Of a stretch of DNA of 39,579 nt, positions 1,237 to 38,337 are shown one piece after another. The notes below the pieces were generated by a model. The model made no database searches. It was given only the letters and a program-made list of their open reading frames with translations, and was not told where the DNA came from. Position numbers and translations under genes: made by a program. Source of the stretch: a virus; UHGV virus genome UHGV-0251828, one strand, 5' to 3'. Every line of letters starts with the position of its first letter. Position 1 is the first letter of the stretch.

Positions 1237-1259
1237 AAACAAGGCCGCGAAAGCGGCCT
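1235..1259 (-). terminator. intrinsic terminator ending the minus-strand virion operon
   Basis: GGCCGC-GAAA-GCGGCC hairpin; T-run on minus strand (A-run 1235-1241 on plus). Confidence 0.6.
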
Positions 1260-1271
1260 GTGACATGTCAC
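1260..1271. repeat. perfect 12-bp palindrome GTGACATGTCAC, copy 1 of 3
   Basis: Exact match; contains the stop codon of the 1268..1564 gene; abuts the terminator hairpin. Confidence 0.8.
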
Positions 1272-1564
1272 GTTCCTTTTCTGAATGATAGCCGTTCGAA
1301 AAATGATGACATTCCACCGCAGACAATAGCAAAGATGATCCCACCAAAGAAGAGAAGGCCAGCCTGCCACCACTCCCACCGCCATACATCCACAGCGCCA
1401 ATCATACCAACAATCGCTCCAACAAACGGAATATAACTCACGACAAAAGCAACGGGAGCTGCAATTACCCAGTGCAACCCCCACCATGATTCAAGCCCAG
1501 CCATAATTGCTGCCAACTGAAAAAGACCAACGACGATATAAACAATGAATCCTATAGCTTGCAT
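1268..1564 (-). CDS. small membrane protein (98 aa, about 3 predicted TM segments)
   Basis: Track ORF; ATG with AGGTGA SD; hydrophobic segments. Confidence 0.6.
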   Translation of the reverse strand: MQAIGFIVYIVVGLFQLAAIMAGLESWWGLHWVIAAPVAFVVSYIPFVGAIVGMIGAVDVWRWEWWQAGLLFFGGIIFAIVCGGMSSFFERLSFRKGT

Positions 1565-1576
1565 GTAGTCACCTAT

Positions 1577-1750
1577 TTACCCATTAAAAATCAGAGGCCT
1601 CCCCTCAATAAGGCTTGCAACAAGAACTACTCCCTGCACAACAAAGATGAACCAGCAAATAGCTTGAGTCTGAGGGTTAAGAAAATATTTGTAGCGGTCA
1701 ATAAATAACAATCCACCAGAAATTATCACACTCAAAATAATTAAAAACAC
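1577..1750 (-). CDS. small hydrophobic protein (~57 aa), GTG start
   Basis: Hand-translated; AGGAAG SD 5 nt before GTG; two hydrophobic stretches; below ORF-track size cut-off. Confidence 0.3.
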   Translation of the reverse strand: MFLIILSVIISGGLLFIDRYKYFLNPQTQAICWFIFVVQGVVLVASLIEGRPLIFNG

Positions 1751-1759
1751 AACACTTCC

Positions 1760-4234
1760 TTATTGCGGAGTGACATCCTGAGGTCGCCACCAGTATGTCT
1801 GGTTAAACTCTTTCTTCGAACGTTGCTCCATTTTACGCAAATAGCCTGGTGAAAAATACTCCTGCATCTGGTTAAAGATCATGTGATCGAGAGCCGCCTT
1901 CAAGTACCAGAGATTCGCACCAGGCATCAAACCTTTCCCCAGCTTCACCAGATCACCACCAGTCTGCTCACTCTTCCCTTCCACAGCATTTAACGGTATG
2001 CCCTGAGCAATCTTCACTACGTCATCAACCAGACCAGCTACCGGGCCAAGCATCGACGCCAGCGCGCCGCTTCCGTACCTAGTGTGATCTGACAATAAAA
2101 AGTCACCATAAAGGCCAAGACCACCACCTTTCAGTAGAGCACCAAGCCAGAATTTTGCGGCATCTTCTCCTGTCATCTCTCGAGGATTACGACCAGACGC
2201 AAGGTCGTTAAGTTGTTGCGACAAAGCGCCAAGAATGGTCGTACTGGCAATAAACGTCGCAATATATGCCGCACGCCCACCAGCAGACGGCATACCCATA
2301 GCGCGTGACCAGTGACGCATAACAACCGAGATAGGGAACGATTTAAACAGGAAAACACTTCTCGTTAATTCACCTTTCCATGTTCCACGCTGAATACCAG
2401 AACCGGTTATCAGTTGCTCACGTGCTCCCGGTGTAATAACAGCCATATCAACTTCTTCAGTTACGGCACCGAGCAGTTTACGCATTGCCTCAAATTTCAC
2501 GCGTTCAGGCTCACCAAGATGTTTAACTGCTGAATCAGGGATACGCATAATGCTTTCCGGTGTCAGCATCGTATTATTACCGTTCCCCCAGTCCTCCTGT
2601 TGCGCCAGCTTCCATACGCTCCAGTCTGTGTCAGTAATCCCTTTGCTTTTCAGGATACGAAAATCAGAGTCATCGAGGCTACGAAGGTCTGGTGTTCGTG
2701 ACACTACTTCTCCCAGGCTTCCCATCATGGTTACGCCATAGGCGCGCTTGTGCGCATCTGACCATGCTGTAAGCCCACTGGCACGCATTACCGCCGTTGC
2801 CGCCCAACGAGACACTGACGGCCCCATATTATCCATCGCCCAGCGGTTAACGCTGCCAAGTAGAGATTCCATCGCCAGACCAGCGCGGCGCGCCCGCGCA
2901 AGTTCTGTACGGTTCGTTGGGTCCATAGCTTCAAGCTGGTTGCGGAATAACTGGTTCATTGGAAGGTTGGTAACCTTCGCAGACAGATACATGGTTCCAA
3001 GATCAGAGAACGATGACAGCAACGCGGATCCGAGTCTGCTGGCAACCAGCCAGTTGCGGATATTGTCAGACCATCGCGCGATGTGCGGATTCGCTACAGG
3101 CTGTGTCTTTCCGGAAATAAAGTTGTACAGATTCTCTGTGTTGTTCGCCAGCCGCTCGACTTTACCGGTTTTACTCGGGTTAGCTGTTGCCGTTTCTGCC
3201 TTAACCTGATCAAGAAGGGAGCGGAAAACATGATCGGGGTTTGGACCATATGTTTCCACCAGTGCAATATCTTTACTGATACCTTCCAGGTGACCGACCA
3301 TGATTTCCCATAGAGAGCGATCGCCATAAAGTTGCTGATATTGCAGATAGGAATCTGCATCTTTGAAATGTATCTGTCGTGATGCATTACCACGGTTAGC
3401 ACGTGCGCCGGAAATTCGCATTCCGGTATCAGTAAGCTTATTCAGCCCACCAGTAGCGATCGTGTTATAAGCCTCTCCAAGAAATGCAGACAACTCGGCA
3501 TCGTTCATCAGTTGTCCATCGGCTCGGATATAATATTTGCGATCCAGCTTACCTATAACATCGCTAACCCACTTATCCTTTGATACCGCCCCAACCTTTT
3601 CCATAGAATGATGTTGAGGGATCCCCCAGTTTTCGAGATAGCCAATGTCCCCACCAGCATCATTAAACCTGCGGCGCAGTAGCTCTGTCACTTCTCTCCA
3701 CGCCTTAGCACCTTTTCTTGCTTTAGCATTGCCAGTATTTTGCCCCCGCATTTCATATACCAGGTCACGTACGCCCGCTTCATCTTCAAACAGACCAAAA
3801 AAGCGAGGATCAACTGCTTCGAATGCCTCCTGCAATTGACTCAATGCATAATCACGGGTGGCTTTTGTTCTGGATTCAACAGAGAGGAAATTCGATTTAC
3901 CGTCTGCATTAAAAGCAATAGTACGGTTAAGAGCGCCAAGTTTCCCATCAGCCCCTTGATAGCTATTGATAAATTTATCCAATCTCTGACGTGCGGCTAT
4001 AGTGAGGGCCACACGACGTTTCTTTAATGCCGCTTCTCGCTGTAATTCTTCAGATGCCAATTGTGCTGCACGATATAGCCGCTCTGATTCGGAAAGTTGT
4101 CTCCACGACATCGGGTCATCACGAGCAATGGAGCGCATATTTCGATAAATGCGGTCTTCAATGTTCTGTATTTCTCGCGCCGTTAACGTGCGCTGCGCCG
4201 CCTGCTGGACCGCTTGTATACATTCCTGTCTCAT
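1760..4234 (-). CDS. internal virion/ejection protein (T7 gp16-like position)
   Basis: 824-aa track ORF; GAGAGG SD; last large gene of the virion operon. Confidence 0.75.
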   Translation of the reverse strand: MRQECIQAVQQAAQRTLTAREIQNIEDRIYRNMRSIARDDPMSWRQLSESERLYRAAQLASEELQREAALKKRRVALTIAARQRLDKFINSYQGADGKLGALNRTIAFNADGKSNFLSVESRTKATRDYALSQLQEAFEAVDPRFFGLFEDEAGVRDLVYEMRGQNTGNAKARKGAKAWREVTELLRRRFNDAGGDIGYLENWGIPQHHSMEKVGAVSKDKWVSDVIGKLDRKYYIRADGQLMNDAELSAFLGEAYNTIATGGLNKLTDTGMRISGARANRGNASRQIHFKDADSYLQYQQLYGDRSLWEIMVGHLEGISKDIALVETYGPNPDHVFRSLLDQVKAETATANPSKTGKVERLANNTENLYNFISGKTQPVANPHIARWSDNIRNWLVASRLGSALLSSFSDLGTMYLSAKVTNLPMNQLFRNQLEAMDPTNRTELARARRAGLAMESLLGSVNRWAMDNMGPSVSRWAATAVMRASGLTAWSDAHKRAYGVTMMGSLGEVVSRTPDLRSLDDSDFRILKSKGITDTDWSVWKLAQQEDWGNGNNTMLTPESIMRIPDSAVKHLGEPERVKFEAMRKLLGAVTEEVDMAVITPGAREQLITGSGIQRGTWKGELTRSVFLFKSFPISVVMRHWSRAMGMPSAGGRAAYIATFIASTTILGALSQQLNDLASGRNPREMTGEDAAKFWLGALLKGGGLGLYGDFLLSDHTRYGSGALASMLGPVAGLVDDVVKIAQGIPLNAVEGKSEQTGGDLVKLGKGLMPGANLWYLKAALDHMIFNQMQEYFSPGYLRKMEQRSKKEFNQTYWWRPQDVTPQ

Positions 4235-4239
4235 TTAAT

Positions 4240-6042
4240 TTAACCTCTCAAGAAACACGCCACAGCGACATCAAACAGGCTGGAATCCTGTATTGCCTGC
4301 TCACTTTCCCTGTTCGCTTCATCCAGTACTTCACGCGCGCTGCGCGATTGTGGATTACCATCATCATCCAGCACGGTGATTATCATGTCCGGAGATTCAA
4401 GCAGCGAGTCTTCAGCTATACGCAGATCAATATCTCCTGCCGGATCTGCCATCATTTTTTGTTCTGTCTGTTGCAATATCTTACCGGGCTCAAAAGGAGC
4501 TACTTCGTCTGGCGTCCTGACCTCTGCTGTTTTATAGAATGAAACAGCCTGAGCATTAAGTTCACTTTCTGCCTGCTGTCGCCGTGCCAGTTCTGCTCGA
4601 GCTTCAAAAAACTGACCGCCAGGCTCATGCGGTGCCAACGCGTTACGGGAAAATTCCAGGCGTTCTTGTGCCTGCCGGATTCGTTGGTCAATATCGCGCA
4701 GTCTGGCCTGTTTATCTGATCGAGCACGAGATAAAGCCTTACCGCTACCGGTTGGCTCTTCTGCAAGAATTTGTGCGCGCTGTTCAGTGAGATTTTCAAT
4801 AATTCGTTGGCTATTAGCGATTTCAGACTGGTAAACCTGTCTATCGCCACGCGGCAAAAGCTGCGCGGCCTGTTCTTCAAGCAACCGATTTTCTATAGCG
4901 CGCGCCGTTACTCCATCATCTACAGATGACAGAGCCTCATTAACTGCCTGAGACAGCAGACTCTTGCGCCCAGGAATTTCACTGAAAGATGCAGACTCAA
5001 CAATGCTGGCAACGTCTACAGGCCTCCCCTGGCTAACATCAGACATGGCTTTTCGCAGAGCCTGAATGTGCGAATTACGCGAAAGCACGTTGATCGGAAC
5101 GCCGGGCGCAATATCAATTTCAGCATGATGAGCGGCATTCGCCGCCAGTGCAGCATCGATATCAACTGGTGAAAAATTTGGTGCGTTTGTAGACTCGCCG
5201 CGAGAGTTAATAAATCTGCCGACACCACCAAACGCCACCCCAAGAACAGCATCAATAGCAATTGCCTGTCGATCCAACACATCATACTGGTTAGCCATTT
5301 CGCTATAGCCACCATCACGAAGCGTTTTTGCAGTAAGCCCACGCTGTGCCATACCGAACGCAATATTTGTACCTGCGGCATAGGCAATATCTGGCGTTGC
5401 ACGTACTGCTGTTGCTGCGGCGCGTCGCACTGAACTCTCACCCGTCCGCGCAAGCTGAGCCGCCACACCTTCCGCCAGCGCACCACCAGCACGTAACCCG
5501 AGGCTCATAGGGATCAGTGTTCCGGCACCAGCAGTAATGCCCTGCACTAATCCCGCTTCCTGCGCCGTCCTGAAATCAACACCCTGTGCTGTCAGCCGTT
5601 CAAACTCAGAAAAACCCTGTAGCGAAGTTACCGCCGCTGCACCTCCGACAGGACCTCCGAGCGTTGTACCGACAACAGCCTGCCCGCCCATATCGAACAA
5701 CCCATAAAGAACCTGCCCGGCGGTTCCGGTTGTCGCGGCATCAGGCGTCAGCCGCTTAACCTGCTGCTCTGCTAGTTTTCTCTGCTCAGCAATGTATGAA
5801 ACTGAAGTGTCATTGAGCGAGGTGTTTTCGTTAACAAACTGAGCAATCGGGGATACGATTTTATCCATCCCTGCCCATAGCAACTGATCTGGCTTTGCCA
5901 CCAGCCCGGAGTACAAACCAGACAATGCCGCTCCTACAGCATTGTCGAAAAAACCAACATCGCTGTTAAAGCCAGCTGGATTTGATGCTGCTTCGTCAAG
6001 CTGCTGATTCTGGTTTACTGGATTAAGGCCAAAGTAACTCAT
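4240..6042 (-). CDS. internal virion/ejection protein
   Basis: 600-aa track ORF; ATGA overlap with upstream gene; Gly/Ala-rich. Confidence 0.75.
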   Translation of the reverse strand: MSYFGLNPVNQNQQLDEAASNPAGFNSDVGFFDNAVGAALSGLYSGLVAKPDQLLWAGMDKIVSPIAQFVNENTSLNDTSVSYIAEQRKLAEQQVKRLTPDAATTGTAGQVLYGLFDMGGQAVVGTTLGGPVGGAAAVTSLQGFSEFERLTAQGVDFRTAQEAGLVQGITAGAGTLIPMSLGLRAGGALAEGVAAQLARTGESSVRRAAATAVRATPDIAYAAGTNIAFGMAQRGLTAKTLRDGGYSEMANQYDVLDRQAIAIDAVLGVAFGGVGRFINSRGESTNAPNFSPVDIDAALAANAAHHAEIDIAPGVPINVLSRNSHIQALRKAMSDVSQGRPVDVASIVESASFSEIPGRKSLLSQAVNEALSSVDDGVTARAIENRLLEEQAAQLLPRGDRQVYQSEIANSQRIIENLTEQRAQILAEEPTGSGKALSRARSDKQARLRDIDQRIRQAQERLEFSRNALAPHEPGGQFFEARAELARRQQAESELNAQAVSFYKTAEVRTPDEVAPFEPGKILQQTEQKMMADPAGDIDLRIAEDSLLESPDMIITVLDDDGNPQSRSAREVLDEANRESEQAIQDSSLFDVAVACFLRG

Positions 6043-8552
6043 TGCGGAATATCTCCGGAGAATCTCTGACGCTTCTGTGTCAGATTAAGAACAACGGGAG
6101 AACCATCATCTTTCAGCAGATAACCAGTACCAAGTTTCACCAGGTACTGACTATCGCCGTAACTTTGCAAACCATACTGACCAGGCGGTGTTTTTATCCC
6201 GGAGCCGACAACTTGTTCATTCCAAGCCTGATTAACCTGCTTATCGAATTGCTCTGCAGACATTCCCCACGGCAAAAGGACATTCCCCATTCCGTTATAG
6301 TCATGCACGCCACCTGTAGCTACGTTAACAGCCTGTTTCCAGACATCATTGTCAATTTCGCCTGGTACCACGCCTTTTTTCGCCATCACACCAGCGTAAT
6401 AGTCCTTTGCGATCTCGTATGCCATTGATGCCCCCTGAGCATCACCAGCAAATGCATCCTTCACCATGTCAGAAAACTCAAGGCGAAGATCAGCATCTTT
6501 AGGCATCGGAATACCTTTCGCATCATCAGTACCTTTACGAGCAGCCGCGCCAGCAAGAATTGTCTGCGCAGCGGTTTCAGGAGACACGGAAACATCCGGA
6601 TTAAACCAGTTTTTTTCTGCCAAAATACCACTAGGCTTATCCATCAGTATCCCGGCAACGGCAGCAGATGGAGCGTTGGCACTGATCTGCTGTAGTGCTG
6701 ACATATACACCTGCCCACCACCAGTGCTTTGCCTGATGGTATCGAGATATGCTGCCTGTTGGGAAACTGGCGCATCACGAAAGAAAACACCGATTTGATT
6801 GGCCTCGTCTTTGGAAAAGAACGTCAGTGGAGTGCCATATGACTTGGCAAGATCACTAACCTGAGCGGCACGCAAGGCAACGCTCTGTCCAAAGTTATCC
6901 TTATTGCTCATGTCGATAGGCTTTGCCTGTCCGGCGGCAAGAGAGAACTGCACAGGATCCGATTGCCGCTGCTTTATCACCTGATTTGCAGCCGAAACAA
7001 CGTTGTCATAAAGAGCTGCGCGAGCCGCATAACCCTCCCCTGTCTCACCAGTATCTGGGCGCAATTGCTCAACATATGCTGTAATGCTGCTTGTCGGCAT
7101 GTTGCGGAAAGAGCCTATATACTGTCCGGCGATCTGCGTATTTCTGAACTCGGTATATCGCAGGTTTCCTTCTCTGACGCCATAAGCTGCAATAAAATCA
7201 TCCTCACCTGGTGGGTTAGGAAATTCAACGCCACGCATATACGCAGCCGTCGCATCGCGAACCCGGCTGTCGAGCATCGTTTTATATTCAGCCTGCTGTT
7301 GTCTGGCTAGTGCATCAGTCTGTCGCAACACGCTGGCCTGATCTGATTCACTTAAAGCATCGAACCAGGCTACACCGGTATAACGTTTATTTTTTGTCGG
7401 TAGCTGAGAAAGCCCCAGCGCGGCACTAACACCATCAGTTAACTGCTGATCACTGTATGGCTGGCTACCGTTTTCATGATGGATAATGGCTGCACAAAGC
7501 GCCTTCAGGGTATCAGGATTTGATGCATCGAGAGGCTCATCAGCAGAAACGCCAAGTTGTTCGCACACTGCTTTGATATACGACATAGTGTCATTTTTAT
7601 CAGTAGGCGGTGCCCAGCGATTAATTATCTCGCTGACGGTATCAATACCCTGCCGCTGATACGACATCAGGTTCCGCCCTAATGCACGAATACCGTGTTC
7701 AGGGGTTTCGAATTTGGCAAAGCGACCATCATCACCAGTCTGCCCAACCCACGGATTAGTTTTGCTGTATTCAAGATTGCCGGGGTTATTGTTGCGTATA
7801 CCGCGGGTACGATCGGAAGAGCCACTATCTGCTACAGCACGGCGAGATCCAACAGCAGTATCGCTTAACTCGCCGTTTTGCTGTCTTACCTGAAGATAGT
7901 TTGCTCCAATAGCATTTTGAGCAGTTGCTTTTGCTGTTGCTTCTTTAAACTCGATTTTCTTGGCCCGAATCTGCTCGTCGCTCCAGCCATGCGCAATGCC
8001 GTAATCCTCAATTTGCTGGAAAGTTTGCTTATTAGCCAATACGTATGCGGCGTTGTCGCCATACAATGCTGCGGCATTTTTACCATTGTTCAGCAGCGTA
8101 GCCTGAAACTGACCTTCTTCGTAGGCATTTATTTGCCCTATCTCGTGCCGCCCGGCCTGCGTAGTGAACTGAATACGCTGCTGCTGTGCCTGCTGCATGA
8201 AAGCATTACGAGCCTGTTCATCTTGCAGCGACATAGCCAGTTGTTCGACCTGAGCATCAAACTGCTGCGTATACTCCTGACCTTTTCCAATAGCATTTTT
8301 CCCTTTCAGGTTAAGCAAACCTGTTTCAGGGTTATTCAGCAGATCGCTGCTTATCTGACTGAGGTTAAGAGATGCCTCCTGTGCCAGAGCGATATTGGCA
8401 CGCTGTTTTGCCTGACCAAAAACATCAATTGCCTCTGTCCCTGCCCGAACAAAAGCATCACCAATACCTGGCTGAGAAAACGTCTGCAAGCCTGCTGACT
8501 GAACTCCACGACTCTCAACCTGACGTCCGGATACTGTTGGTACAACTGGCAT
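6039..8552 (-). CDS. internal virion protein (T7 gp15-like position), ~837 aa
   Basis: Track ORF 6039..8627 trimmed to ATG at 8552 (GGAGG SD, TAATG overlap with upstream stop). Confidence 0.75.
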   Translation of the reverse strand: MPVVPTVSGRQVESRGVQSAGLQTFSQPGIGDAFVRAGTEAIDVFGQAKQRANIALAQEASLNLSQISSDLLNNPETGLLNLKGKNAIGKGQEYTQQFDAQVEQLAMSLQDEQARNAFMQQAQQQRIQFTTQAGRHEIGQINAYEEGQFQATLLNNGKNAAALYGDNAAYVLANKQTFQQIEDYGIAHGWSDEQIRAKKIEFKEATAKATAQNAIGANYLQVRQQNGELSDTAVGSRRAVADSGSSDRTRGIRNNNPGNLEYSKTNPWVGQTGDDGRFAKFETPEHGIRALGRNLMSYQRQGIDTVSEIINRWAPPTDKNDTMSYIKAVCEQLGVSADEPLDASNPDTLKALCAAIIHHENGSQPYSDQQLTDGVSAALGLSQLPTKNKRYTGVAWFDALSESDQASVLRQTDALARQQQAEYKTMLDSRVRDATAAYMRGVEFPNPPGEDDFIAAYGVREGNLRYTEFRNTQIAGQYIGSFRNMPTSSITAYVEQLRPDTGETGEGYAARAALYDNVVSAANQVIKQRQSDPVQFSLAAGQAKPIDMSNKDNFGQSVALRAAQVSDLAKSYGTPLTFFSKDEANQIGVFFRDAPVSQQAAYLDTIRQSTGGGQVYMSALQQISANAPSAAVAGILMDKPSGILAEKNWFNPDVSVSPETAAQTILAGAAARKGTDDAKGIPMPKDADLRLEFSDMVKDAFAGDAQGASMAYEIAKDYYAGVMAKKGVVPGEIDNDVWKQAVNVATGGVHDYNGMGNVLLPWGMSAEQFDKQVNQAWNEQVVGSGIKTPPGQYGLQSYGDSQYLVKLGTGYLLKDDGSPVVLNLTQKRQRFSGDIPQ

Positions 8553-9097
8553 TATAATCCTCCGGGTAATCTGGTTCCTGCTGCTGCCCCGATTGGCGCA
8601 GGAGTGCTTTGAGTAAACGGACTCCACGTCCCACCAAACATCTGGTACGCACCGTATGCCTTCAGAGGCGCAGTGAGCAATGTTGTTGCTGCTCCCACAT
8701 TCACCTGTTTACGGGCTGAACTGGCTTCTGCTTTATAGTTGGCAGCCTGAACCTGATAACCGTAAGCCTCGCGTTGCGCGTTATTCACCGTCGTCAGAGA
8801 ATCAAGAGCGCCAAACTGGGCAGTGTCGCCAAATATATCCAGCGCGTTACCTGTAGATAAATCAGCGCCGGTAGCCCCCATTGTCGCCGCCTGTGTACCA
8901 AGCCGCTGTCGGGTCTCTCTGCGCCGTTGCTCAGCTTCAGCGTTACCTCTGTTTATTGCATCATTTGCCTGAGCTGTGGCTATATCTGCGTTCGCTTCTG
9001 CAACCTTCGAGGCATACTTTCCCTGTTGGTACTGGGTGTATGCCTGAATGCCACTCATGGCGAGCATTGCGCCACCAGCAATAACCGGATCGCACAT
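8552..9097 (-). CDS. internal virion protein B-like (181 aa)
   Basis: Track ORF; translationally coupled; Ala/Gln-rich with N-terminal hydrophobic segment. Confidence 0.65.
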   Translation of the reverse strand: MCDPVIAGGAMLAMSGIQAYTQYQQGKYASKVAEANADIATAQANDAINRGNAEAEQRRRETRQRLGTQAATMGATGADLSTGNALDIFGDTAQFGALDSLTTVNNAQREAYGYQVQAANYKAEASSARKQVNVGAATTLLTAPLKAYGAYQMFGGTWSPFTQSTPAPIGAAAGTRLPGGL

Positions 9098-12954: not shown

Positions 12955-12965
12955 ATACACTCCTG

Positions 12966-12986
12966 CAATAAAGGGGCCGAAGCCCC
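12966..12986 (-). terminator. intra-operon hairpin (possible attenuating terminator after capsid-proximal genes)
   Basis: GGGGC-CGAA-GCCCC stem-loop with short U-tract on minus strand. Confidence 0.35.
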
Positions 12987-13004
12987 TTGTCTGATCCGCG
13001 AGGC

Positions 13005-13340
13005 TTACACGCCCAGTTCTTTACGCTTATCTGCGATCTTCTCGCGGAGCGTTTCGGCTTTGGCGTTATGGTGTGGCTTCTCGTTAAAGAGCAATTCGTA
13101 CTCTTCACGGAGCTTATCCAGTTCACCATCATCTGACACATCGTTGATGATTTTGGTGCTGGTTGCTGCCATTGACACCTTTCCTGCAACTTTTGCTTTT
13201 GCCTGTCTGGCTGTATCGTTAACAGGTTCCAGTGCGCTACCAGGCTCACCTTCGTATTCGATTTCTGCCCCCTCCGGCCACAGAGTGTTATGGATATGAG
13301 AGAGGCGCAGAACGCGGTATCTTGGTTTCTCACCTGACAT
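13005..13340 (-). CDS. hypothetical virion protein (~111 aa)
   Basis: ATG at 13340 with AAGGTG SD (track ORF 13005..13349). Confidence 0.5.
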   Translation of the reverse strand: MSGEKPRYRVLRLSHIHNTLWPEGAEIEYEGEPGSALEPVNDTARQAKAKVAGKVSMAATSTKIINDVSDDGELDKLREEYELLFNEKPHHNAKAETLREKIADKRKELGV

Positions 13341-13350
13341 CGATATCACC

Positions 13351-13788
13351 TTAACCAGTTACTTTTGAGCGGATCGGATACGGCGTATTGGCATCAACAT
13401 CAAGACTGATACCAGCAGTGAATTCGCCAGCCGTTAGTGGGCCAGTTGCGACGGAGTAGTTAACACGCAGATATCGCTGAACACCGGCAGGCACCTTTGC
13501 AGAAACAACTCGTTTACCTGCTGTCAGGGCGGTCTTTGCCAGTGCGCCACTATCATAAATAGTGGTCCATGAGCTGTTATCCTCACTCGTCTGCAACTGG
13601 ATGTTTACAGTTGCATCACCGCTTGCCGCGGCGGCTGTGTTAACCAGCGCCCAAAACTCAAGCGGGTAACCCACGCCGATATCACGACGTTTTCCGTCAA
13701 TTGGACCGAGATCGATTACGTCAGTAGAAGCCGCGGTATTCGTAACCGCCTGAGCTTCGGAGAACATCAACAGTTTGTCGGTGATCAT
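13351..13788 (-). CDS. putative capsid decoration/structural protein (145 aa)
   Basis: Track ORF; GGAGA SD; directly downstream of major capsid gene. Confidence 0.5.
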   Translation of the reverse strand: MITDKLLMFSEAQAVTNTAASTDVIDLGPIDGKRRDIGVGYPLEFWALVNTAAAASGDATVNIQLQTSEDNSSWTTIYDSGALAKTALTAGKRVVSAKVPAGVQRYLRVNYSVATGPLTAGEFTAGISLDVDANTPYPIRSKVTG

Positions 13789-13839
13789 CTTCTTTCTCCA
13801 TTAGTGGGTCTGTTACGACCCACAGGTTAATAACAGGCG

Positions 13840-14832
13840 TTACACCACGCGGGCTTCTGTTTCCAGAAGCGCATCAGTTTCACGGATTGGTACACCACGG
13901 AATGAAGTCCACCACTCGCCTTCAGTCTCTTTTACGCTGATAGCCAGAGATGTTTTCTCCAGAGATTGCAGATCAAGAGCCTGGCCTACAGTGCGGTTCA
14001 TGTAGAACACCGGGCGGCCCATGCCACGGTTTGGAATGCGATGCAGTGCTTTAACCATCAACTTCGCAATATTTGCGGCAGAGGAAGGTTCTGAAAGATT
14101 GCTGACATCGATGTTTGCAATGCGAACAACATAACGCCAGTCACGCAGAGCAAGTCCGTTATCCCATTTATAATGGGTGCGATAGCCTTCGTACTTGCCG
14201 CCATTAGCATCTTCCAGTGTCACCTGGCCTTTATCTTCCATCTGGATGCCAGCCTTCTGCCCTTTCGGGAAGATGCCATGCACGGTGTTTTCGCCCCACA
14301 CCACTAACCAGATTGAGGTGTTATCTGTACCCGTGCCACCAGCATCAATGATGTTCTGAGCATTACCCGCAGACAGGCTGGAATAGCGGGAGGACAGTCC
14401 CATAAACTGCTGAGGGTTAACGCTGGAATCACCATAAAACAGCGTCTGCGCCATCTGCTGATTCATCGCTTCAATAAATGCGCGGTCTTCAGACAGGCGG
14501 AATTCGGCGGTATTGCCGTTCAGATCAGCCAGTGACTTATCGACTTCAGCATAGGTTTCCAGCATGCCCACGGAATCGGTTACCTGCACTGTGGTTGATT
14601 TGCTTGGCTGTACGCCATAGTTCAGCAAACGCCAGGTAGCTGAAGGTAAACCAGAACGAATGGTGGTTCGGTGTCCGGTAGGAAGGTTCCCTTCGACAAA
14701 AGGCATATCCTGAAGGATCGGGTTAGTTTGACCGAGAAGCTCGATAATCTTATCGACTTTCCCGTTTGGATCGACGCGCTTACCCCAGTCAGCCAGCGTT
14801 AGCGCAGTTAAGCCTTTAACAGCCATTGTCAT
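13840..14832 (-). CDS. major capsid protein (330 aa)
   Basis: Track ORF; position after scaffold; size typical of T7/epsilon15-type capsid. Confidence 0.8.
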   Translation of the reverse strand: MTMAVKGLTALTLADWGKRVDPNGKVDKIIELLGQTNPILQDMPFVEGNLPTGHRTTIRSGLPSATWRLLNYGVQPSKSTTVQVTDSVGMLETYAEVDKSLADLNGNTAEFRLSEDRAFIEAMNQQMAQTLFYGDSSVNPQQFMGLSSRYSSLSAGNAQNIIDAGGTGTDNTSIWLVVWGENTVHGIFPKGQKAGIQMEDKGQVTLEDANGGKYEGYRTHYKWDNGLALRDWRYVVRIANIDVSNLSEPSSAANIAKLMVKALHRIPNRGMGRPVFYMNRTVGQALDLQSLEKTSLAISVKETEGEWWTSFRGVPIRETDALLETEARVV

Positions 14833-14840
14833 TTCCTCTC

Positions 14841-15536
14841 TTATTTGCCATAGAGCACTTCGGCCGCACTACGCTGGCCTTCATTACCACCGGTGACCAT
14901 GCCATCTTCAGACATCGCCTTTCCGATTTTCACGAACGTTTTGACCAGATCAGGGTGATTACCCAGCCCGGTGGTGTTCAGATATTCTTTGAGTTCAGGT
15001 GTCCCGAACTGGTCAAGCGCATGCTGTGCGGCGCTAAGGTTAGAAATCAACTTGTCGCCACCGATTTCTTTGTCAGCTTTTACATCCGCAGCCCACTGCT
15101 CGGTTGTTTTCTGCCAGGCTTCTGCCTGGCGCTGCTGAACACCTGCCAGAATCTTCGGATAAGCATCAACCAGCTTTTGCGCTTGCTCGTTGGTCAGGTT
15201 AAGTTCTCGCGCCACCGGCTCGAATTCCTTCAACGCTTCTGTATCCAGCTCTACGCCTTCGGCAGCCTGAAACTCGTACTTCTCAGGCGCACCCTCTGGT
15301 TTATCGCCGTCCTTTTTTTCATCCTGCTTATCGTTTTCAGGCTTTTTGTCATCAGCAGGTTTATCGCCATCAGCAACAGGTTGTGGCTTATCACCTTCCT
15401 GTTGTGATGGATCACCAACTGGAGCAGGGTTATCACCTGCAGGCGCTGACGGTTCTGACGCAGCCGGAGCTGCTCCACCATCGACTGGTTGCTCATTGCA
15501 AAGACGGCTATACAGCAAACGCTCAAATAAATTCAT
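14841..15536 (-). CDS. scaffolding protein
   Basis: Acidic, low-complexity, Pro/Asp/Lys-rich; ATG at 15536 with AGGAG SD. Confidence 0.7.
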   Translation of the reverse strand: MNLFERLLYSRLCNEQPVDGGAAPAASEPSAPAGDNPAPVGDPSQQEGDKPQPVADGDKPADDKKPENDKQDEKKDGDKPEGAPEKYEFQAAEGVELDTEALKEFEPVARELNLTNEQAQKLVDAYPKILAGVQQRQAEAWQKTTEQWAADVKADKEIGGDKLISNLSAAQHALDQFGTPELKEYLNTTGLGNHPDLVKTFVKIGKAMSEDGMVTGGNEGQRSAAEVLYGK

Positions 15537-15538
15537 GA

Positions 15539-15835
15539 TCACTCCTGTTCACTGGCCTCTTTGGCCATCTTCAAATACTGTTCAGGGCAATGCGCCATAA
15601 CGCGCTGAAACAGTTCCAGCGCCAGATTGCGTTGCCCCTCATTAAATGCCATTGCCATAGCGTCCATCGGTGAGATAGCGGAAAACACACGGCCTTTCTC
15701 CAGCACCGACCAGACAACGCGACGCCCCTGTTCACTGCTCATGACAAAGCGAATGTCATCAATTTCACGCTGTGCCATGTCACGTTGCTTACGGGCGTTT
15801 TCTTCTTTCAGTTGATCGTCTTCGTAATCTGTCAT
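15539..15835 (-). CDS. hypothetical protein (98 aa) between portal and scaffold
   Basis: Track ORF, coupled to portal stop. Confidence 0.5.
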   Translation of the reverse strand: MTDYEDDQLKEENARKQRDMAQREIDDIRFVMSSEQGRRVVWSVLEKGRVFSAISPMDAMAMAFNEGQRNLALELFQRVMAHCPEQYLKMAKEASEQE

Positions 15836-17511
15836 TGTGATTGCCCACCCTGACCACTAACTGCATTCGCCATAGCTGACAAAACACTCGGATCCGAAGT
15901 TTTAGCTTCGCTTAGCGTCTTGGCACCCTGTGCCGCCGCCATCCCCATCGCCATCATTTGTTGCTGCTGTTGCTGCTGTGCCCGTTGCTGGCGAGCCTGC
16001 TCAACCTGTTCCTGCGGAACAATGACGGTTGGAGACACTCCGGACATATCAGCGAATGCATCGATCGCCTGATCAACGTTGAGTTTGTCGAGAGCTTCTG
16101 GTTTCGCTTGCGCAAGTTGACCAATGAAGTTAACCGTGGACGCCAGACTGGACAGGCCGATAGACTTCTGCGCCTGAGCCATGACGGAAATGTATTCGAC
16201 CTTCAGGGGCATGCCTTCCATCGCGTCAGGCGGTGGCGGCAGCATGTTTTTACGCACCATCATCGAGAAAGCGCGGTCAATGAGAGGATTAAGACATTCG
16301 TCGTTCAGACGCTCCAGAACCGGCCCCAACATCAGAAGTTTTTCTTCTTTCATTTCGATCACCGCTTCCACAGGCATCGAGCGGGTATTGATGTTCTGCA
16401 ACATCATGAACAGATCGACAAAGTAGGCGCTGTTAATGATTTGACGAGTGTCCTGAATGTCTGCCACCAGATCTGCTGTACTGGGGTTAACCAGATAAGC
16501 AGGCCTGAAACCATCCTGACCAGTAATCTGATCGATATACGTGATGTCGCCAGGAAGAAGGGAGGCGCGCTGATTCTTGAGGGAAGTCGGAGCAACCATC
16601 GGCGGATTGGTGGCTTTATCAATCAACTGCGACTTGCGCTTCTGAAGAAGCTGCAATGCCTTAACAGGTCCAAGCGCCAGCATACCCGGGCATGATGATC
16701 CATAAACATCTTCGCCGTTAACTTCCCAGCGCGGAGCCATAATTGGAAACTCATCGAATCCGGATTCACGTAACAACTTGTCGTTGTCGCCACCAACCTC
16801 GTAATAAACCGATTTGAATGGCTTGTTCTTGCTATCCAGCTTCGATGTATCGCGGTCAATGTTCGGGTAAACCGAATGCATCACTTCAATCCACTTCTCG
16901 TAGGTGCCGCTTTCCCACATGCTTTTTACGGATTCGCTGACGTTATTTAGTCCGAATTCCTGAACAAGCTGACGAACAGTCATAGAGAACTTGCGAAAAC
17001 AGGTGTCCACACTGCCACGAGGTGAGTTAGCCAGGTAGTAACTGCCTATCGGGAATGGCATTGTGCGAATGATGTCCTCGTCATCCTCCATCACTGCCAT
17101 TGCACCAGTGCTGTATGTGCCGAGGCTTCCGTATAACTGCGGCAGCGACTGATAGAGATTCGACTTATTGAACATATCGTTCATGCGGTTCTGCACCGCC
17201 TCAAGCCACAACTTAACAGGGCCATAATCCATCATTTCAGGATCTGGCGTAGCCAGGCGAAACCACGGACGCGCGGGGCTTGTGATGCCTGACATCATGC
17301 CGCTGGCGAGAGTGCGCGCCGCCATAGTCCCGGTCGAATCAATAATGCGTGTATTGCGTCGATCGTTACGGTTGACCTCAGAAGTCAGAAAGCGGGAACC
17401 ACGCGGGTTGATGTAATCACTCAACTCGCGCCAGTGCGGCTCGAACGACTGACGCTCGCTTTCAAGTTGTGCGAACTGTTTGTTCAATCGCTCTTTAGTT
17501 GTTTCCGCCAT
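15832..17511 (-). CDS. portal (head-to-tail connector) protein
   Basis: 559-aa track ORF downstream of terL; size and position. Confidence 0.85.
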   Translation of the reverse strand: MAETTKERLNKQFAQLESERQSFEPHWRELSDYINPRGSRFLTSEVNRNDRRNTRIIDSTGTMAARTLASGMMSGITSPARPWFRLATPDPEMMDYGPVKLWLEAVQNRMNDMFNKSNLYQSLPQLYGSLGTYSTGAMAVMEDDEDIIRTMPFPIGSYYLANSPRGSVDTCFRKFSMTVRQLVQEFGLNNVSESVKSMWESGTYEKWIEVMHSVYPNIDRDTSKLDSKNKPFKSVYYEVGGDNDKLLRESGFDEFPIMAPRWEVNGEDVYGSSCPGMLALGPVKALQLLQKRKSQLIDKATNPPMVAPTSLKNQRASLLPGDITYIDQITGQDGFRPAYLVNPSTADLVADIQDTRQIINSAYFVDLFMMLQNINTRSMPVEAVIEMKEEKLLMLGPVLERLNDECLNPLIDRAFSMMVRKNMLPPPPDAMEGMPLKVEYISVMAQAQKSIGLSSLASTVNFIGQLAQAKPEALDKLNVDQAIDAFADMSGVSPTVIVPQEQVEQARQQRAQQQQQQQMMAMGMAAAQGAKTLSEAKTSDPSVLSAMANAVSGQGGQSQ

Positions 17512-17525
17512 TTCAATGACTCCGG

Positions 17526-17732
17526 TTACTGACCAAGTAGCGTTTTACCGCTGGTATTAGCGGTTGATGTGTCGCCCTGAGAACCGGTAAGCAGCGTAGA
17601 ACTACGACCAGCAGCAGCGCGACGGCGACGAGTTTCTTCGTCGCGGGCATCAACAACGGCGGCATCCTGCTCCTGTGGTGCTGCCTGAACTTCTGGTGTT
17701 GCAGGCACTGATGGTGAGCTACCCATGCACAT
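17526..17732 (-). CDS. small hypothetical protein (68 aa)
   Basis: Track ORF; GGAG SD; the 12-nt initiation context CGGAGTCATTGA is duplicated before the portal start. Confidence 0.45.
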   Translation of the reverse strand: MCMGSSPSVPATPEVQAAPQEQDAAVVDARDEETRRRRAAAGRSSTLLTGSQGDTSTANTSGKTLLGQ

Positions 17733-17822
17733 ATCAATGACTCCGTACGCAATTAAATTATTACCAATTTAACCACATATGATTTATTTATCGTAGGCAG
17801 TTGACATTTAACGAACAAATTA

Positions 17823-17837
17823 TTACCTTTTAGGTAA
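17823..17837. promoter_or_regulatory. operator-family site TTACCTTTTAGGTAA (perfect 15-bp palindrome) at a plus-strand promoter
   Basis: TTGACA at 17801-17806 upstream; transcription would run toward the tRNA. Confidence 0.55.
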
Positions 17838-18159
17838 GTAAAGAATTCATTCCGGTTATTAACCTGACTGGCTTGTCGTTAAATTGAACAGGTGGGGTGA
17901 GCTTTTATTTTGAGCAGTACGGTGTATGGCACATGCGCCGATAGCGGTCTGGATACGTTTAAGGGGCACCCTCCCTTGCTCGGGCAAACGAACCAGGTAG
18001 CCGGAATGTGCAAGTCGAGCGGTTTTATTCCGCGCACGGGAATTCACCATCCCGGCGATTCGGTGTGACGCCTCGGAAGAGACGAGGGTACAACGCTGAG
18101 AGCATTTATGGAGCCGCGACAAAGTGTGGCGACTTAACAGGCTAAGTGCTCTCAGCGTT

Positions 18160-18236
18160 GTGGCATTAGCTCAGTTGGACAGAGCAACCGCCTTCTAAGC
18201 GGTTGGTCGCAGGTTCGAATCCTGCATGCCACGCCA
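18160..18236 (+). tRNA. tRNA-Arg (anticodon TCT)
   Basis: Hand-folded cloverleaf: 7-bp acceptor GTGGCAT/ATGCCAC, D-stem GCTC/GAGC, anticodon stem ACCGC/GCGGT with loop CTTCTAA, T-stem GCAGG/CCTGC, T-loop TTCGAAT, encoded CCA. Confidence 0.9.
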
Positions 18237-18279
18237 GAATCACGCTTAAGGACCGTGATGCCAGAAGTTCCAGGTGCTT

Positions 18280-18323
18280 GGCGGTGATGGTTTCCCTTGA
18301 AGGACTATCACCGCCCTTTTTAC
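18280..18323 (+). terminator. hairpin plus T-run downstream of tRNA
   Basis: GGCGGTGAT...ATCACCGCC stem with 18-nt loop followed by CTTTTTAC. Confidence 0.4.
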
Positions 18324-18399
18324 AGCAGGACGCCATTACGATGACTTCATGCTGTAAACCAGTACAGCCACGGAAGGCATAACTCATTGCTTCCAGTTC

Positions 18400-18424
18400 G
18401 CCCGGTTCGCCGGGCATTTTTTTA
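18400..18424 (+). terminator. intrinsic terminator-like hairpin abutting the next gene's SD
   Basis: GCCCGG-TTCG-CCGGGC hairpin followed by an 8-T run. Confidence 0.55.
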
Positions 18425-18434
18425 AGGTGAGATT

Positions 18435-18806
18435 ATGAACGACCAGCAAATCGAAAAAGAAATCGTTGAGAAAGGCAAAACTGCTCCGCGCGTTACGCCA
18501 GACCATATCGAAAGCATTATTGCTCAGGAGGCATATTTCACAGCAGAGGATGGTGCCTTTGGCAAAGCCATAAAAGCGAAACATACTGGCGGATATGTAA
18601 ACTACCAGCCGCACGAATCACTTTCTATGCTGACGTTCTGCGTCCTGGTGCTGCGCAACGGCTTCACCGTCACCGGAGAGAGCGCCTGTGCAAGCCCGGA
18701 AAACTTTGATGCAGAAATTGGTCGGAAGATTGCCCGGCAGAATGCTGTAAACAAAATCTGGATGCTTGAAGGTTACTTGCTGAAGCAGAAGTTAAGCGAG
18801 CAATAA
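18435..18806 (+). CDS. accessory protein of the phage Gp49/Sf6-gp66-like family (123 aa; from memory)
   Basis: Track ORF; AAGGTGA SD 6 nt upstream; opposite strand to flanking packaging genes. Confidence 0.65.
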   Translation: MNDQQIEKEIVEKGKTAPRVTPDHIESIIAQEAYFTAEDGAFGKAIKAKHTGGYVNYQPHESLSMLTFCVLVLRNGFTVTGESACASPENFDAEIGRKIARQNAVNKIWMLEGYLLKQKLSEQ

Positions 18807-18810
18807 CACC

Positions 18811-18822
18811 GTGACATGTCAC
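18811..18822. repeat. perfect 12-bp palindrome GTGACATGTCAC, copy 2 of 3
   Basis: Exact match, 5 nt after the Gp49-like stop and 4 nt before a terminator hairpin. Confidence 0.8.
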
Positions 18823-18826
18823 AAAC

Positions 18827-18854
18827 AGCCAGCCTATGAGCTGGCTTTGTTTTA
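18827..18854 (+). terminator. intrinsic terminator of the tRNA/Gp49-like island
   Basis: AGCCAGC-CTATGA-GCTGGCT hairpin followed by TTGTTTTA. Confidence 0.65.
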
Positions 18855-18896
18855 TCCTCACCAGAGGATATCAACGACATTATCCCCACCAGCGGA

Positions 18897-20372
18897 TTAA
18901 GCATAGGGATCGTAATCTGTAATGGCCTTTCCTTGCTGGTTCTGCTGACCTAGAATTCGCAGACGCTTCGACACAGGGAACGCAAACGTCAGCAGTAGCG
19001 CATCGCCTTTACCAGGAGAACGCCCAAGCCGCTCCTTGATATCTTCCTTCGGTTCGATAACGATTTTACCGTCCACTCGAACTTTGTACTCTGCCGCAGA
19101 CAGGTCGTCCGCTGTTTCCTGGTCATCCAGCATGCCGCCCAGCCTCAGCCATGTCTTGCATGAGTTGAACATCTCCCCACGCTTGTTGAGCATCTGCGGG
19201 TCAGTAGACGCGCCACCGAACGGAACAAGTTGCCATGTACGACCCCAGCCATCACCGATTGACTTCAGACCAGTTCCGTAACCGAAGTCGATGAACACTG
19301 CGTCAGCCTGGTACTGGTCTTCAAAGTCAGCGATACGCTTCGCCATAATCAGATCGTCAGTGGTCTTGTTGCCAGTCCACAGCACCTTACTGTGCAGCCC
19401 CTGCCGCAGGTATATCACAGCGTCATCAACGCCGGAGTATGCCGGGTCAACGCCGATTATCACCGGAGCATGTGCAACCTGCGCAGCGGTTACCACCCGT
19501 TTCATTGCCTCGTCAGTAAGGCCGGTAGGGATAAACTGCAATTCAGATGCATCAGGAAATATGCCGCGCACACGGATTTTAACGAAGTCGCTGTCTTCCC
19601 CGTAGTCATCAACCCATTTCTGCAACTGCTGTTTGTTAGTACCTTCCACCGTCCGGCTGTCAATCTGCGCAGTTTTCCAGCGGTGTTTGTATTTGCGGAA
19701 ACATTCGCGAAAACGCCCGGTATTACGTGTAGGGTTTCCGAACGCCACCCAGATAATCTCAGTGTCTTCGTCCGTTAGCGCACCCTCGGCAACTTCCCAC
19801 ACCAGATCCGCAATGTTCGACGCTTCATCGAATACCACAATGATGCGTTTGCGCTCGTTGTGTAGTCCGGCGAATGCCTCAGTGTTGTGCTCAGACCAGG
19901 GGATTGCGTCAGCTCGCCACCGCTTGTCGTGTCCAGGATCATTGCTGTACATCGCGGTAGCGGTACAGGTAAACCAGTCTTTCGTGATAGCAAGGTTCGA
20001 CCACTTGATAATTTCCGGCCAGGTCTTCGTTCGTAGCTGGTTGTCGGTGTTGGCGGTCACCACAACCTTACAATCCTCGCAAGTGGACATGCCCCAGTTG
20101 ATCAGCATTGAGATGAATGCGGATTTACCAATACCGTGACCCGAAGCACGTGCCAGCATAAGCGGCTGATAGCGAGTCTCTGGATTCTGCAGGTGATCAC
20201 GTATCTCTCGGAACGCATCAGCCTGCCACTGACGTGGACCGGTGGCATGTGCCAGTTCAGTCCCATCTTCCCCCCACGGGAACGCATAGAGGGCATAGCC
20301 AAGCGGATCGTGAGTGAACCCTGCAATATCCTCGATCAACTGCTCTTCAGGAGATAACGCTGCATCTGTCAC
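18897..20372 (-). CDS. terL: terminase large subunit
   Basis: 491-aa track ORF; GTG start overlapping terS stop (GTGA); AGGATGG SD. Confidence 0.85.
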   Translation of the reverse strand: MTDAALSPEEQLIEDIAGFTHDPLGYALYAFPWGEDGTELAHATGPRQWQADAFREIRDHLQNPETRYQPLMLARASGHGIGKSAFISMLINWGMSTCEDCKVVVTANTDNQLRTKTWPEIIKWSNLAITKDWFTCTATAMYSNDPGHDKRWRADAIPWSEHNTEAFAGLHNERKRIIVVFDEASNIADLVWEVAEGALTDEDTEIIWVAFGNPTRNTGRFRECFRKYKHRWKTAQIDSRTVEGTNKQQLQKWVDDYGEDSDFVKIRVRGIFPDASELQFIPTGLTDEAMKRVVTAAQVAHAPVIIGVDPAYSGVDDAVIYLRQGLHSKVLWTGNKTTDDLIMAKRIADFEDQYQADAVFIDFGYGTGLKSIGDGWGRTWQLVPFGGASTDPQMLNKRGEMFNSCKTWLRLGGMLDDQETADDLSAAEYKVRVDGKIVIEPKEDIKERLGRSPGKGDALLLTFAFPVSKRLRILGQQNQQGKAITDYDPYA

Positions 20373-20962
20373 TGATTGCCATCCTGACGTTCTTTCAGTC
20401 TCTTCCTGGCTGCCGCTATGCGATCAGCAATTGTCACATTCACATTAACATCCAGGCGTTCTTTGAATGCATTGACATCGACGTGCTTACCAATCAGCTC
20501 AAGGTTCTTCACCTTGTCAGGCCATTTAATTTTTTTGAGGATTGTCTCTATCGAATCCTCGTTCATGTTCATGATGGTCGATGACAGATCAAAGCCGCTA
20601 AGCGTAGTGCGCCAGATTTTCGGCCACTCGCGGATTGGCTTAAGGCCCCCATCATCGTTGAGGATATCAATCACGTCCATCTGGTCGATCTCCACCAGGC
20701 GCATGAGAACGTAATCAGCACTGACACGCATTCGTTTGTTGCGCTCTTCCATCAGCTCGGCAATCCGTTTTTGAATGCGTTCATCGCGCATCATGACACT
20801 GGCTTTAACTGCCGCTGTATTTGGGGAGAATCCTGCGTTAATCGCTGCCTGAGTCTGGTTTTCAGGCGTTTTGATGTATGACTGGCAATAAGCCTCCTGC
20901 ATTGCTGTTAGTGGCTTAAATTGCGTTGATTTACGTTTATAGGTTTTAGGTTCAGCAGGCAT
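20369..20962 (-). CDS. terS: terminase small subunit (~197 aa)
   Basis: Track ORF 20369..21043 trimmed to ATG 20962 (GGTGG SD); the TTG-start extension would cover the upstream terminator. Confidence 0.65.
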   Translation of the reverse strand: MPAEPKTYKRKSTQFKPLTAMQEAYCQSYIKTPENQTQAAINAGFSPNTAAVKASVMMRDERIQKRIAELMEERNKRMRVSADYVLMRLVEIDQMDVIDILNDDGGLKPIREWPKIWRTTLSGFDLSSTIMNMNEDSIETILKKIKWPDKVKNLELIGKHVDVNAFKERLDVNVNVTIADRIAAARKRLKERQDGNQ

Positions 20963-21008
20963 CGTAACCACCGTGGTAATAGTTACCGTTGTGGTAATAG
21001 TACCATGC

Positions 21009-21034
21009 AAAATAAAGCCGCCATAGTTGGCGGC
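21009..21034 (-). terminator. intrinsic terminator between early region and terS (tR'-like position)
   Basis: GCCGCC-ATAGTT-GGCGGC hairpin followed on minus strand by TTTATTTT. Confidence 0.6.
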
Positions 21035-21075
21035 AGTATTCAAAACACATCAAATTCATCATGCATAATCTACTC

Positions 21076-21087
21076 GTGACATGTCAC
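21076..21087. repeat. perfect 12-bp palindrome GTGACATGTCAC, copy 3 of 3
   Basis: Exact match; contains the stop codon of the 21084..21422 gene; ~40 nt 5' of the terminator on the transcribed strand. Confidence 0.8.
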
Positions 21088-38233: not shown

Positions 38234-38318
38234 GTTAAATCTCCAGATAGTCGCAGCACCCGTTGCGCCGCATATCTGGTTATTCTATTACCTGAAAAAC
38301 CACATATGGATAGAAAGA

Positions 38319-38334: not shown

Positions 38335-38337
38335 ATA

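Follow-up and report, generated by a model that had tools for sequence, protein, structure and literature searches.

A 12-bp palindrome, GTGACATGTCAC, that occurs three times in the virus genome UHGV-0251828 is very likely a double-stranded DNA operator that would form a cognate protein–DNA pair with a 112-amino-acid (aa) protein whose stop codon lies inside one of the copies, to judge from the distribution of gene and site among phages. The window analyzed here is the whole 39,579-nucleotide (nt) stretch of that genome. It belongs to an epsilon15/phiV10-like temperate podovirus (genus Uetakevirus) with 95–98% identity to its relatives, of which ZX5, HEMP4, and phiV10 are the nearest, and most of its genes lie on the minus strand. 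The protein is encoded at 21084..21422 (minus strand) and is a member of the family that includes epsilon15 gp49 and N15 gp46; we propose that it binds the palindrome. On this view, the element is the operator in a portable module of regulator and operator, and its placement beside terminators is a feature of the genus. The original epsilon15 and phiV10 genome papers aside, full-text literature searches returned no description of the gene–site module, the 12-mer, or its variants.

The exact 12-mer was recovered at positions 21076–21087 (site A), 18811–18822 (site B), and 1260–1271 (site C), as reported in an earlier note on this DNA, and nowhere else in the window. It did not appear once across 100 dinucleotide-preserving shuffles of the window, and its three-copy, terminator-adjacent arrangement is far beyond chance. 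Site A, which lies over the TGA (21086–21084) of the gp49-like gene, closes the early-right operon; in the sense of late transcription, the next features are a terminator, repeats of the repressor-site type, and terS. Such an own-gene site is the hallmark of the family. Site B is flanked by the convergent terL gene (18897..20372, minus strand) and a cassette consisting of a tRNA-Arg and a PF13876 gene (18160..18806, plus strand), and the TAA of the open reading frame (ORF) at 18435..18806 (plus strand) ends 4 nt short of the palindrome. Site C marks the 3′ end of the structural (late) operon, where it overlaps the TGA (1270–1268) of the ORF at 1268..1564 (minus strand), abuts a terminator hairpin, and faces the convergent antirepressor operon. 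At sites A and C, the TGA occupies bases 2–4 of the palindrome read on the minus strand, which bears out the observation that two copies hold the stop codon of the preceding gene in the same register. A mismatch-tolerant scan of the window found one further copy with a single mismatch, GTGCCATGTCAC (15772..15783), and only one with two mismatches, at 23542. The former lies inside the ORF at 15539..15835 (minus strand), is kept in relatives as coding sequence with the same mismatch every time, and is probably outside the system. The GenBank records of epsilon15 and phiV10 annotate terminators and leave the palindrome without annotation.

Homologues of the 112-aa protein were found by tblastn in 152 phage records of quite different kinds. 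Among all homologues in the fetched DNA, which come from podo-, myo-, and siphoviruses, N15-like phage-plasmids, and contigs of Pseudomonas, Vibrio, and Paraglaciecola, 145 of 157 have an exact GTGAC-NN-GTCAC within 500 nt downstream of the gene, compared with approximately 0.08 expected by chance according to an arithmetic estimate. This co-occurrence of gene and site argues for a cognate pairing. In approximately 120 of the 157, the site lies over the TGA of the gene in the fixed register xxG-TGA-C, and in approximately 15 more it begins 2–10 nt past the stop. Every epsilon15-type locus in IMG/VR that extends past the gene carries an own-gene site, either overlapping the stop or 6–10 nt downstream (78/78), as does every N15-type locus (49/49); no stray GTGAC-NN-GTCAC was found in the flanking DNA of these two sets of loci. 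Homologues with only about 30–40% identity, from a Paraglaciecola genome, Pseudomonas contigs, and phages of unknown hosts, either have the stop overlapped in the register xxG-TGA-C or carry a site some tens of bases past the gene.

The distant carriers show how the site travels with the gene. The Pectobacterium myovirus ZF40, with a homologue that is 67% identical, holds exactly three copies of GTGACATGTCAC: one 3 nt past the homologue and two inside other genes, of which one is a cII-like gene. N15 (35% identity) has three GTGAC-(TG/CA)-GTCAC sites, located over the stop of gene 46, inside repA, and just upstream of the promoter of the operon of IsrK, C4, and the antirepressor. N15 has the same IsrK and C4 pair as the window, and its site is 23 nt upstream of the promoter. 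A Vibrio siphovirus carries three 12-bp variants with other centres. In the N15-type and lambdoid-prophage subgroups, the site adjoins the Shine–Dalgarno sequence of the next gene. Carriers have one to four copies per genome, kilobases apart, and lambda and P22, two controls that share hosts with the carriers and are without the gene, have no site. From these comparisons, gene and site appear to be one heritable, portable module that recurs in many unrelated phages. Comparative genomics thus points to the family of the 21084..21422 protein as the partner of the site, and the earlier suggestion to include this protein in transcription experiments was apt. In the P2-like Yersinia phage vB_YenM_42.18 (8073–11719), the homologue is located in an accessory region, adjoining a gene for a structural maintenance of chromosomes (SMC)-like protein, and the single exact GTGACATGTCAC lies approximately 470 nt past the SMC-like gene.

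The protein matches phrog_536, annotated as "transcriptional regulator" (E 5e-54), and its family comprises 208 clusters at 50% identity in a search of 1.84 billion representatives. Nothing significant was found in Pfam or NCBIfam (the best match was YbfE-like, E 0.045), a PDB sequence search returned nothing relevant, and there was no match to a Q family. A Foldseek search of the model against the PDB and a viral library was uninformative. AlphaFold gave a poor model from a shallow alignment (predicted local distance difference test [pLDDT] 61.6) and a confident one from an alignment of 80 sequences (pLDDT 89.1), and the latter was used. In this model, a predicted basic helix (residues 5–18) is followed by an extended segment (19–29), helices at 30–42 and 52–74, a four-cysteine knuckle (Cys79, Cys82, Cys91, and Cys99), and a final helix. 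The model has the features of a ribbon-helix-helix fold, with modest fold-match scores. The best-conserved basic residues of the family are R8 and R13 of the N-terminal helix, which are nearly invariant or invariant, and in the model their conservation would match that of the invariant GTGAC half-site. Nearly all ribbon-helix-helix proteins known to us are repressors. The operators of Arc, Mnt, CopG, AmrZ, and the ParD/TacA antitoxins overlap the regulated promoter, whereas the sites described here are located on stop codons, in 3′ untranslated regions, and inside genes, with promoter-like matches at chance level. The phage protein also differs from these repressors by the addition of the N-terminal basic helix and the C-terminal four-cysteine domain.

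Conservation within the genus was examined in seven complete relatives (epsilon15, SPN1S, ZX5, HEMP4, phiV10, TL-2011b, and phiv142-3). The exact 12-mer is present at syntenic places in all of them, apart from site B, which is missing in TL-2011b and has one mismatch in phiv142-3, and site A of phiV10, within which the record is cut. Site C is exact in 7/7. In alignments, the 12-mer is invariant, whereas compensatory changes distinguish the terminator loops and stems of the Escherichia coli phages from those of the Salmonella phages. No fewer than five unrelated gene-side flanks meet the palindrome at its very edge at site C, and at site B, at least eight unrelated cassettes begin 0–8 nt past it among IMG/VR relatives. 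Site B has decayed to a one-mismatch form in 7 of 56 IMG/VR relatives, although the terminator is still there, and it is a dispensable site at a cassette-exchange hotspot. The invariance of the 12-mer against diverging flanks, together with the decayed or absent copies of site B, indicates that selection is strong at sites A and C and weaker at B, and that the element marks mosaic junctions. The description of the palindrome as a dedicated element is supported by this conservation across complete relatives. Its description as a recombination boundary holds insofar as the sites sit at mosaic junctions; as a function, a boundary is less apt, and the junctions are better regarded as following from a conserved block. 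At the position of site B, TL-2011b has another bidirectional terminator and no site.

Terminator-like hairpins followed by T-tracts were identified with a consensus scan, which placed one next to each site where the earlier note had placed it. Terminator A (21009..21034, minus strand; stem 21034–21017, tail TTTATTTT) ends the early-right operon 41 nt downstream of site A and is the counterpart of the stem_loop feature that closes the epsilon15 record. Terminator B (18827..18854, plus strand; stem 18827–18846, tail TTGTTTTA) is common to the convergent PF13876 cassette and terL, has a strong T-tract on the plus strand only, and coincides with a terminator marked in the phiV10 record. Terminator C (1235..1259, minus strand; stem 1259–1242, tail TGTTTTTA) ends the structural operon and likewise coincides with a terminator marked in the phiV10 record. 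No nucleotides separate palindrome and hairpin at site C, whereas 4 nt do so at site B and 41 nt at site A. We then counted sites with a terminator-like hairpin starting no more than 80 nt downstream on either strand. Such a hairpin was found in 21/22 cases in complete Uetakevirus genomes and at 89 of 111 sites in the Uetakevirus loci of IMG/VR, but in only 4/136 cases outside the genus (lambdoid-prophage subgroup, 0/14; N15-type, 4/105; all others, 0/17). The link between site and terminator is confined to Uetakevirus: the pairing that was to be sought in relatives is kept within the genus and rare beyond it.

A candidate promoter region for terS (20964..21005, minus strand) follows terminator A directly, with an extended −10 element, TGGTACTAT, at 21005–20997, then TTACC-N5-GGTAA repeats, and the terS ATG at 20962. 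The extended −10 element is conserved (TGTTACTAT in epsilon15), and the repeats, which overlap the promoter, resemble those that the epsilon15 record marks as repressor sites. Downstream of terminator A, terS therefore probably has its own repressor-controlled promoter, as far as these motifs indicate. A second strong hairpin, TATCCTC-N5-GAGGATA, occupies 18855–18880 (minus strand) between the terL stop and terminator B, and the entire 71-nt stretch that holds it folds much better than shuffled sequences (z = −5.0).

Taken as a whole, the best explanation is that the palindrome is the operator of the 112-aa protein and that the bound protein acts as a roadblock or boundary, to which we assign a probability of roughly 0.45; considered separately, roadblock or boundary as the sign of action is a tentative choice, at somewhat less than an even chance. 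The protein would bind as a dimer, with the N-terminal basic helix and the ribbon probably making the contacts to the two invariant GTGAC half-sites. The primary operator would be the one over the gene's own stop, in the register xxG-TGA-C, and one to three more would be scattered over the genome; in the window, the three operators would stand at the 3′ ends of three units, namely, the early-right operon, the terL/moron junction, and the structural operon. Bound there, the protein would be a roadblock or boundary to RNA polymerase during elongation. Polymerase stalled at site A, ahead of the gene's own stop codon, would give rise to non-stop transcripts and thereby to negative autoregulation, and the downstream packaging genes, apparently served by their own repressor-controlled promoter, would be insulated. 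At sites B and C, the bound protein would reinforce the operon ends. A roadblock would account for the fixed overlap register, the intragenic copies in N15 repA and the ZF40 cII-like gene, and the variable distance to downstream promoters, and by analogy it fits the usual behaviour of ribbon-helix-helix proteins.

Other phage and plasmid systems also use dispersed operator sets, such as the stoperators of mycobacteriophage L5, which act on elongation, the C1 operators of P1, and the KorA and KorB sites of RK2. The likeness lies in one regulator with several short, identical, scattered sites, some of them away from promoters. In contrast to those sets, there are one to four copies here, the site is a palindrome and has no orientation, the regulator is distinct from the prophage repressor, and the hallmark copy lies over the regulator's own stop. 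A closer parallel for this last feature is LacI, which autoregulates by a roadblock at O3, at the end of lacI (PMC3711431); a DNA-bound protein blocks RNA polymerase ahead of the stop codon, and trans-translation rescues the ribosome (PMC13584721). The stop overlaps and near-stop sites counted above would likewise put an operator where the gene for its regulator ends, a place at which the bound protein could stop polymerase and block downstream genes (PMC3711431, PMC13584721). The phage system differs in that the protein has a ribbon-helix-helix fold rather than the LacI/GalR fold, the site overlaps the stop in a fixed register conserved throughout the family, and the gene lies inside phage operons; the roadblock itself is a proposal here.

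Several points weigh against this explanation. The good terminators beside the sites make a roadblock look redundant, and the conserved four-cysteine C-terminus would be superfluous for a simple roadblock, which hints at another partner, such as RNA polymerase. In some distant members, the nearest site is 28–416 nt past the gene, where non-stop transcripts would be impossible. The pairing of protein and palindrome is read from co-occurrence, and the ribbon residues were not seen to covary cleanly with the central dinucleotide. The SPN1S-type phages keep all three sites exact although their gene has acquired a different 5′ end and lost the basic helix; either the swap is recent, or the ribbon alone suffices, or another binder exists. 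Upstream of the altered gene in SPN1S (38200–38660), there is an ORF with an apparent ParB-like DGHHNYAAAKLAG motif.

Some other assignments for the palindrome were rejected. An operator of the prophage repressor is not supported, as the epsilon15 repressor sites have a different motif, TTACC-N5-GGTAA. A promoter within the palindrome, with GTGACA as the −35 element, gave 9/12 matches, which is the chance frequency, and was poorly conserved. A pac or packaging site is unlikely, as the cos phage N15 and the early regions of ZF40 carry sites.

The terminators beside the sites raise another explanation, which we consider unlikely: that the palindrome-bound protein is a late-gene switch that contacts RNA polymerase at the terminator just downstream and permits read-through, like lambda Q or AlpA. 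Site A would then gate early transcription into terS and terL, and site C would extend late transcription across the inverted antirepressor cassette to the tail-fibre and lysis genes. The geometry within the genus is in its favour, as 21/22 sites in complete Uetakevirus genomes have a terminator 0–39 nt downstream on one strand, and the centres of sites B and C lie an estimated 32 nt or so behind the expected release point, which is near that of Q. The gene is also the last early gene before terS, no Q-like protein was found in the early-right operon, and the extra cysteine-rich domain could touch RNA polymerase. Relatives from Pseudomonas, Paraglaciecola, and Vibrio present the order gene, site, promoter, short leader, strong terminator(s), and holin. 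This Q-like order is seen in loci L156, L158, L159, L148, and K233 and is compressed in the window, whereas it is absent in N15, ZF40, the lambdoid early-left subgroup, and the P2-like phage. As with lambda Q/tR′ and Pseudomonas aeruginosa AlpA, a small DNA-binding regulator is encoded upstream of a site, followed by an intrinsic terminator and late or lysis genes, and action near the gene's own DNA is plausible by this analogy; AlpA, a small DNA binder unrelated to Q, demonstrates that such non-Q proteins can act as antiterminators (PMC7969949). However, the Q and AlpA elements lie inside the promoter, beside a sigma-dependent pause, whereas the site here lies 50–110 nt upstream of promoters or lacks a convincing one, and many copies are intragenic. 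The distance between site and promoter varies from about −30 to −138, and the site centre is about −52 to −138 from candidate starts in the other lineages. Beyond the genus, the sites do not lie near terminators, and several carriers have a Q-like protein of their own (N15 gene 40, ZF40 gp25, and, weakly, L159), which weakens the argument that a protein at the place of Q is an antiterminator. In the window, read-through at site B in the direction of the cassette would yield only antisense terL RNA, site B is dispensable while its terminator persists, and terS seems to have its own promoter past terminator A. We also know of no ribbon-helix-helix antiterminator. Antitermination, one of the functions put forward in the earlier note, is thus possible; the terminator link is real within the genus and does not extend to the sites elsewhere. 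It is equally doubtful that gp49/gp46-like proteins are unrecognised elongation regulators loaded at a DNA site by a MatP-like reader, which in phages lacking Q, such as the present one, would dock just upstream of intrinsic terminators and switch them off as a new kind of ribbon-helix-helix antiterminator; if they were, the loading site of an antiterminator would be built into the stop codon of its own regulator.

Whichever way the protein acts on polymerase, recognition of the palindrome as double-stranded DNA is favoured because there is no notable RNA structure, copies are intragenic, their orientation is mixed, and the predicted partner has a fold that binds double-stranded DNA. An RNA-level element, be it a recognition hairpin for processing (for example, by RNase III), a translational control of the next gene, or an antiterminator structure, is extremely improbable, although all three copies are transcribed just upstream of terminators, the site adjoins the Shine–Dalgarno sequence of the next gene in N15-type and lambdoid-prophage relatives, and a terminating ribosome would sit on the stop codon within the palindrome. 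The transcribed palindrome can fold into no more than a 4-bp stem with a 4-nt loop, folds showed no competing pairing with the terminators, and fold z-scores were unremarkable for the contexts of site C and site B (plus strand). Rfam had no match at the sites and detected only tRNA-Arg, IsrK, and C4 elsewhere in the window. Variants with asymmetric centres occur in both orientations relative to local transcription. These results, together with the intragenic sites outside the genus, do not support the recognition hairpin or RNA-processing element that had been suggested. For DNA reading, the closest analogue is MatP, which we treat as an analogue rather than a relative. The matS site is GTGAC[AG]N[TC]GTCAC (PMC3603311), with the E. 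coli consensus GTGACATTGTCAC, and MatP contacts it through helix alpha4 and strand beta1 (PMC8669397). The 12-mer of the window equals this consensus less one central base, the phage protein model has a similar layout of basic helix plus ribbon, and MatP was a weak structural match to it. On this basis, the protein might have an architectural role, bridging the dispersed sites or acting on SMC complexes to organise or protect phage DNA rather than to control individual promoters; the one to four sites per genome, kilobases apart, and the Yersinia homologue adjoining an SMC-like gene would suit such a role. We judge it improbable, because hhalign against the MatP sequence (verified against 4D8J) gave a probability of 0.15, with no match to Pfam MatP, and because all copies are 12 bp (GTGAC-NN-GTCAC) rather than 13 bp, the single 13-bp match among the loci checked for such forms being in Vibrio K233. 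The phage-encoded protein also lacks the four-helix bundle and the coiled-coil tail of MatP and has the four-cysteine domain instead, and the placement of the main site on the gene's own stop codon in a fixed overlap would be left unexplained. Moreover, the family extends to Pseudomonas, which to our knowledge is without MatP and MukBEF. A variant in which the protein mimics MatP and evicts SMC complexes from phage DNA is scarcely credible. It is also very improbable that the palindrome is a site for MatP or another host factor, or a protein-free recombination linker or mosaic boundary, with the gp49-like gene as a hitch-hiker. Besides the resemblance to matS, what speaks for this is that the similarity of one phage to another ends right at the palindrome in the case of sites B and C, and in part in that of site A, and that SPN1S keeps the sites with an altered protein. 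Nevertheless, the site follows the gene over Escherichia, Pectobacterium, Vibrio, Paraglaciecola, and Pseudomonas and over unrelated phage types, while lambda and P22, from the same hosts, carry none. A bare linker would not be expected to stay invariant within coding sequence, as the site does in N15 repA (49 loci), mosaic junctions are expected at any conserved block between variable cassettes, and prophages reportedly avoid true matS (PMC3603311).

Dyad operators of ribbon-helix-helix proteins are known as a kind; the dispersed copies and the fusion to a stop codon would set this one apart. If the pairing is true, it supplies a DNA target and a testable role for a phage family that is widespread but has no annotation beyond "transcriptional regulator" or "hypothetical", including epsilon15 gp49 and N15 gp46. 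The design would be unusual, in that the operator is merged with the stop codon of its regulator gene and the two are passed on together among unrelated phages. The near-identity to matS raises the matter of how a change of one base in the spacer sets a phage system apart from the host chromosome organiser. We know of no explanation for late-gene control in epsilon15/phiV10-like phages, and the gene–site module is a concrete candidate for a part of it. These phages are relevant to O157 and Salmonella typing, biocontrol, and serotype conversion, and sites B and C could serve genome engineers as natural cassette-exchange points.

Several neighbouring features were also recorded. The tRNA-Arg(tct) gene (18160–18236, plus strand) lies on the strand opposite to the late genes and overlaps the ORF at 18166–18417 (minus strand), which corresponds to p04 of phiV10 and may be spurious; with the PF13876 gene (18435–18806), it makes up a reverse-oriented cassette that ends at site B. 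IsrK (38770–38846) and the C4 antisense RNA (38871–38954), both on the plus strand, precede the ORF of a Bro-N antirepressor, which takes up 39004–39579 and continues across the end of the window into its start. The window therefore has the appearance of an entire phage genome in circularly permuted form. Among the distant relatives, the succession of gene, site, promoter, leader, terminator(s), and holin or lysis genes spans 6035–6340 in L156, 10387–10671 in L158, 5917–6155 in L159, 10354–10760 in L148, and 33227–33514 in L014. The promoters in these loci, from Pseudomonas, Paraglaciecola, Vibrio, and unknown hosts, are near-consensus and are followed by one or two strong terminators, a layout that resembles lambda PR′/tR′. 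The sequence TAGCGTGGTGA at the start of the leader is common to two Pseudomonas contigs, with a variant in L159, in which the weak Q-like protein is encoded approximately 3 kb upstream. Finally, the ORF at 30274–30522 (plus strand) of the window belongs to the Phage_AlpA family (PF05930). The AlpA protein of P. aeruginosa is a DNA-loaded antiterminator, and if the two are related, this ORF would be another candidate late regulator.

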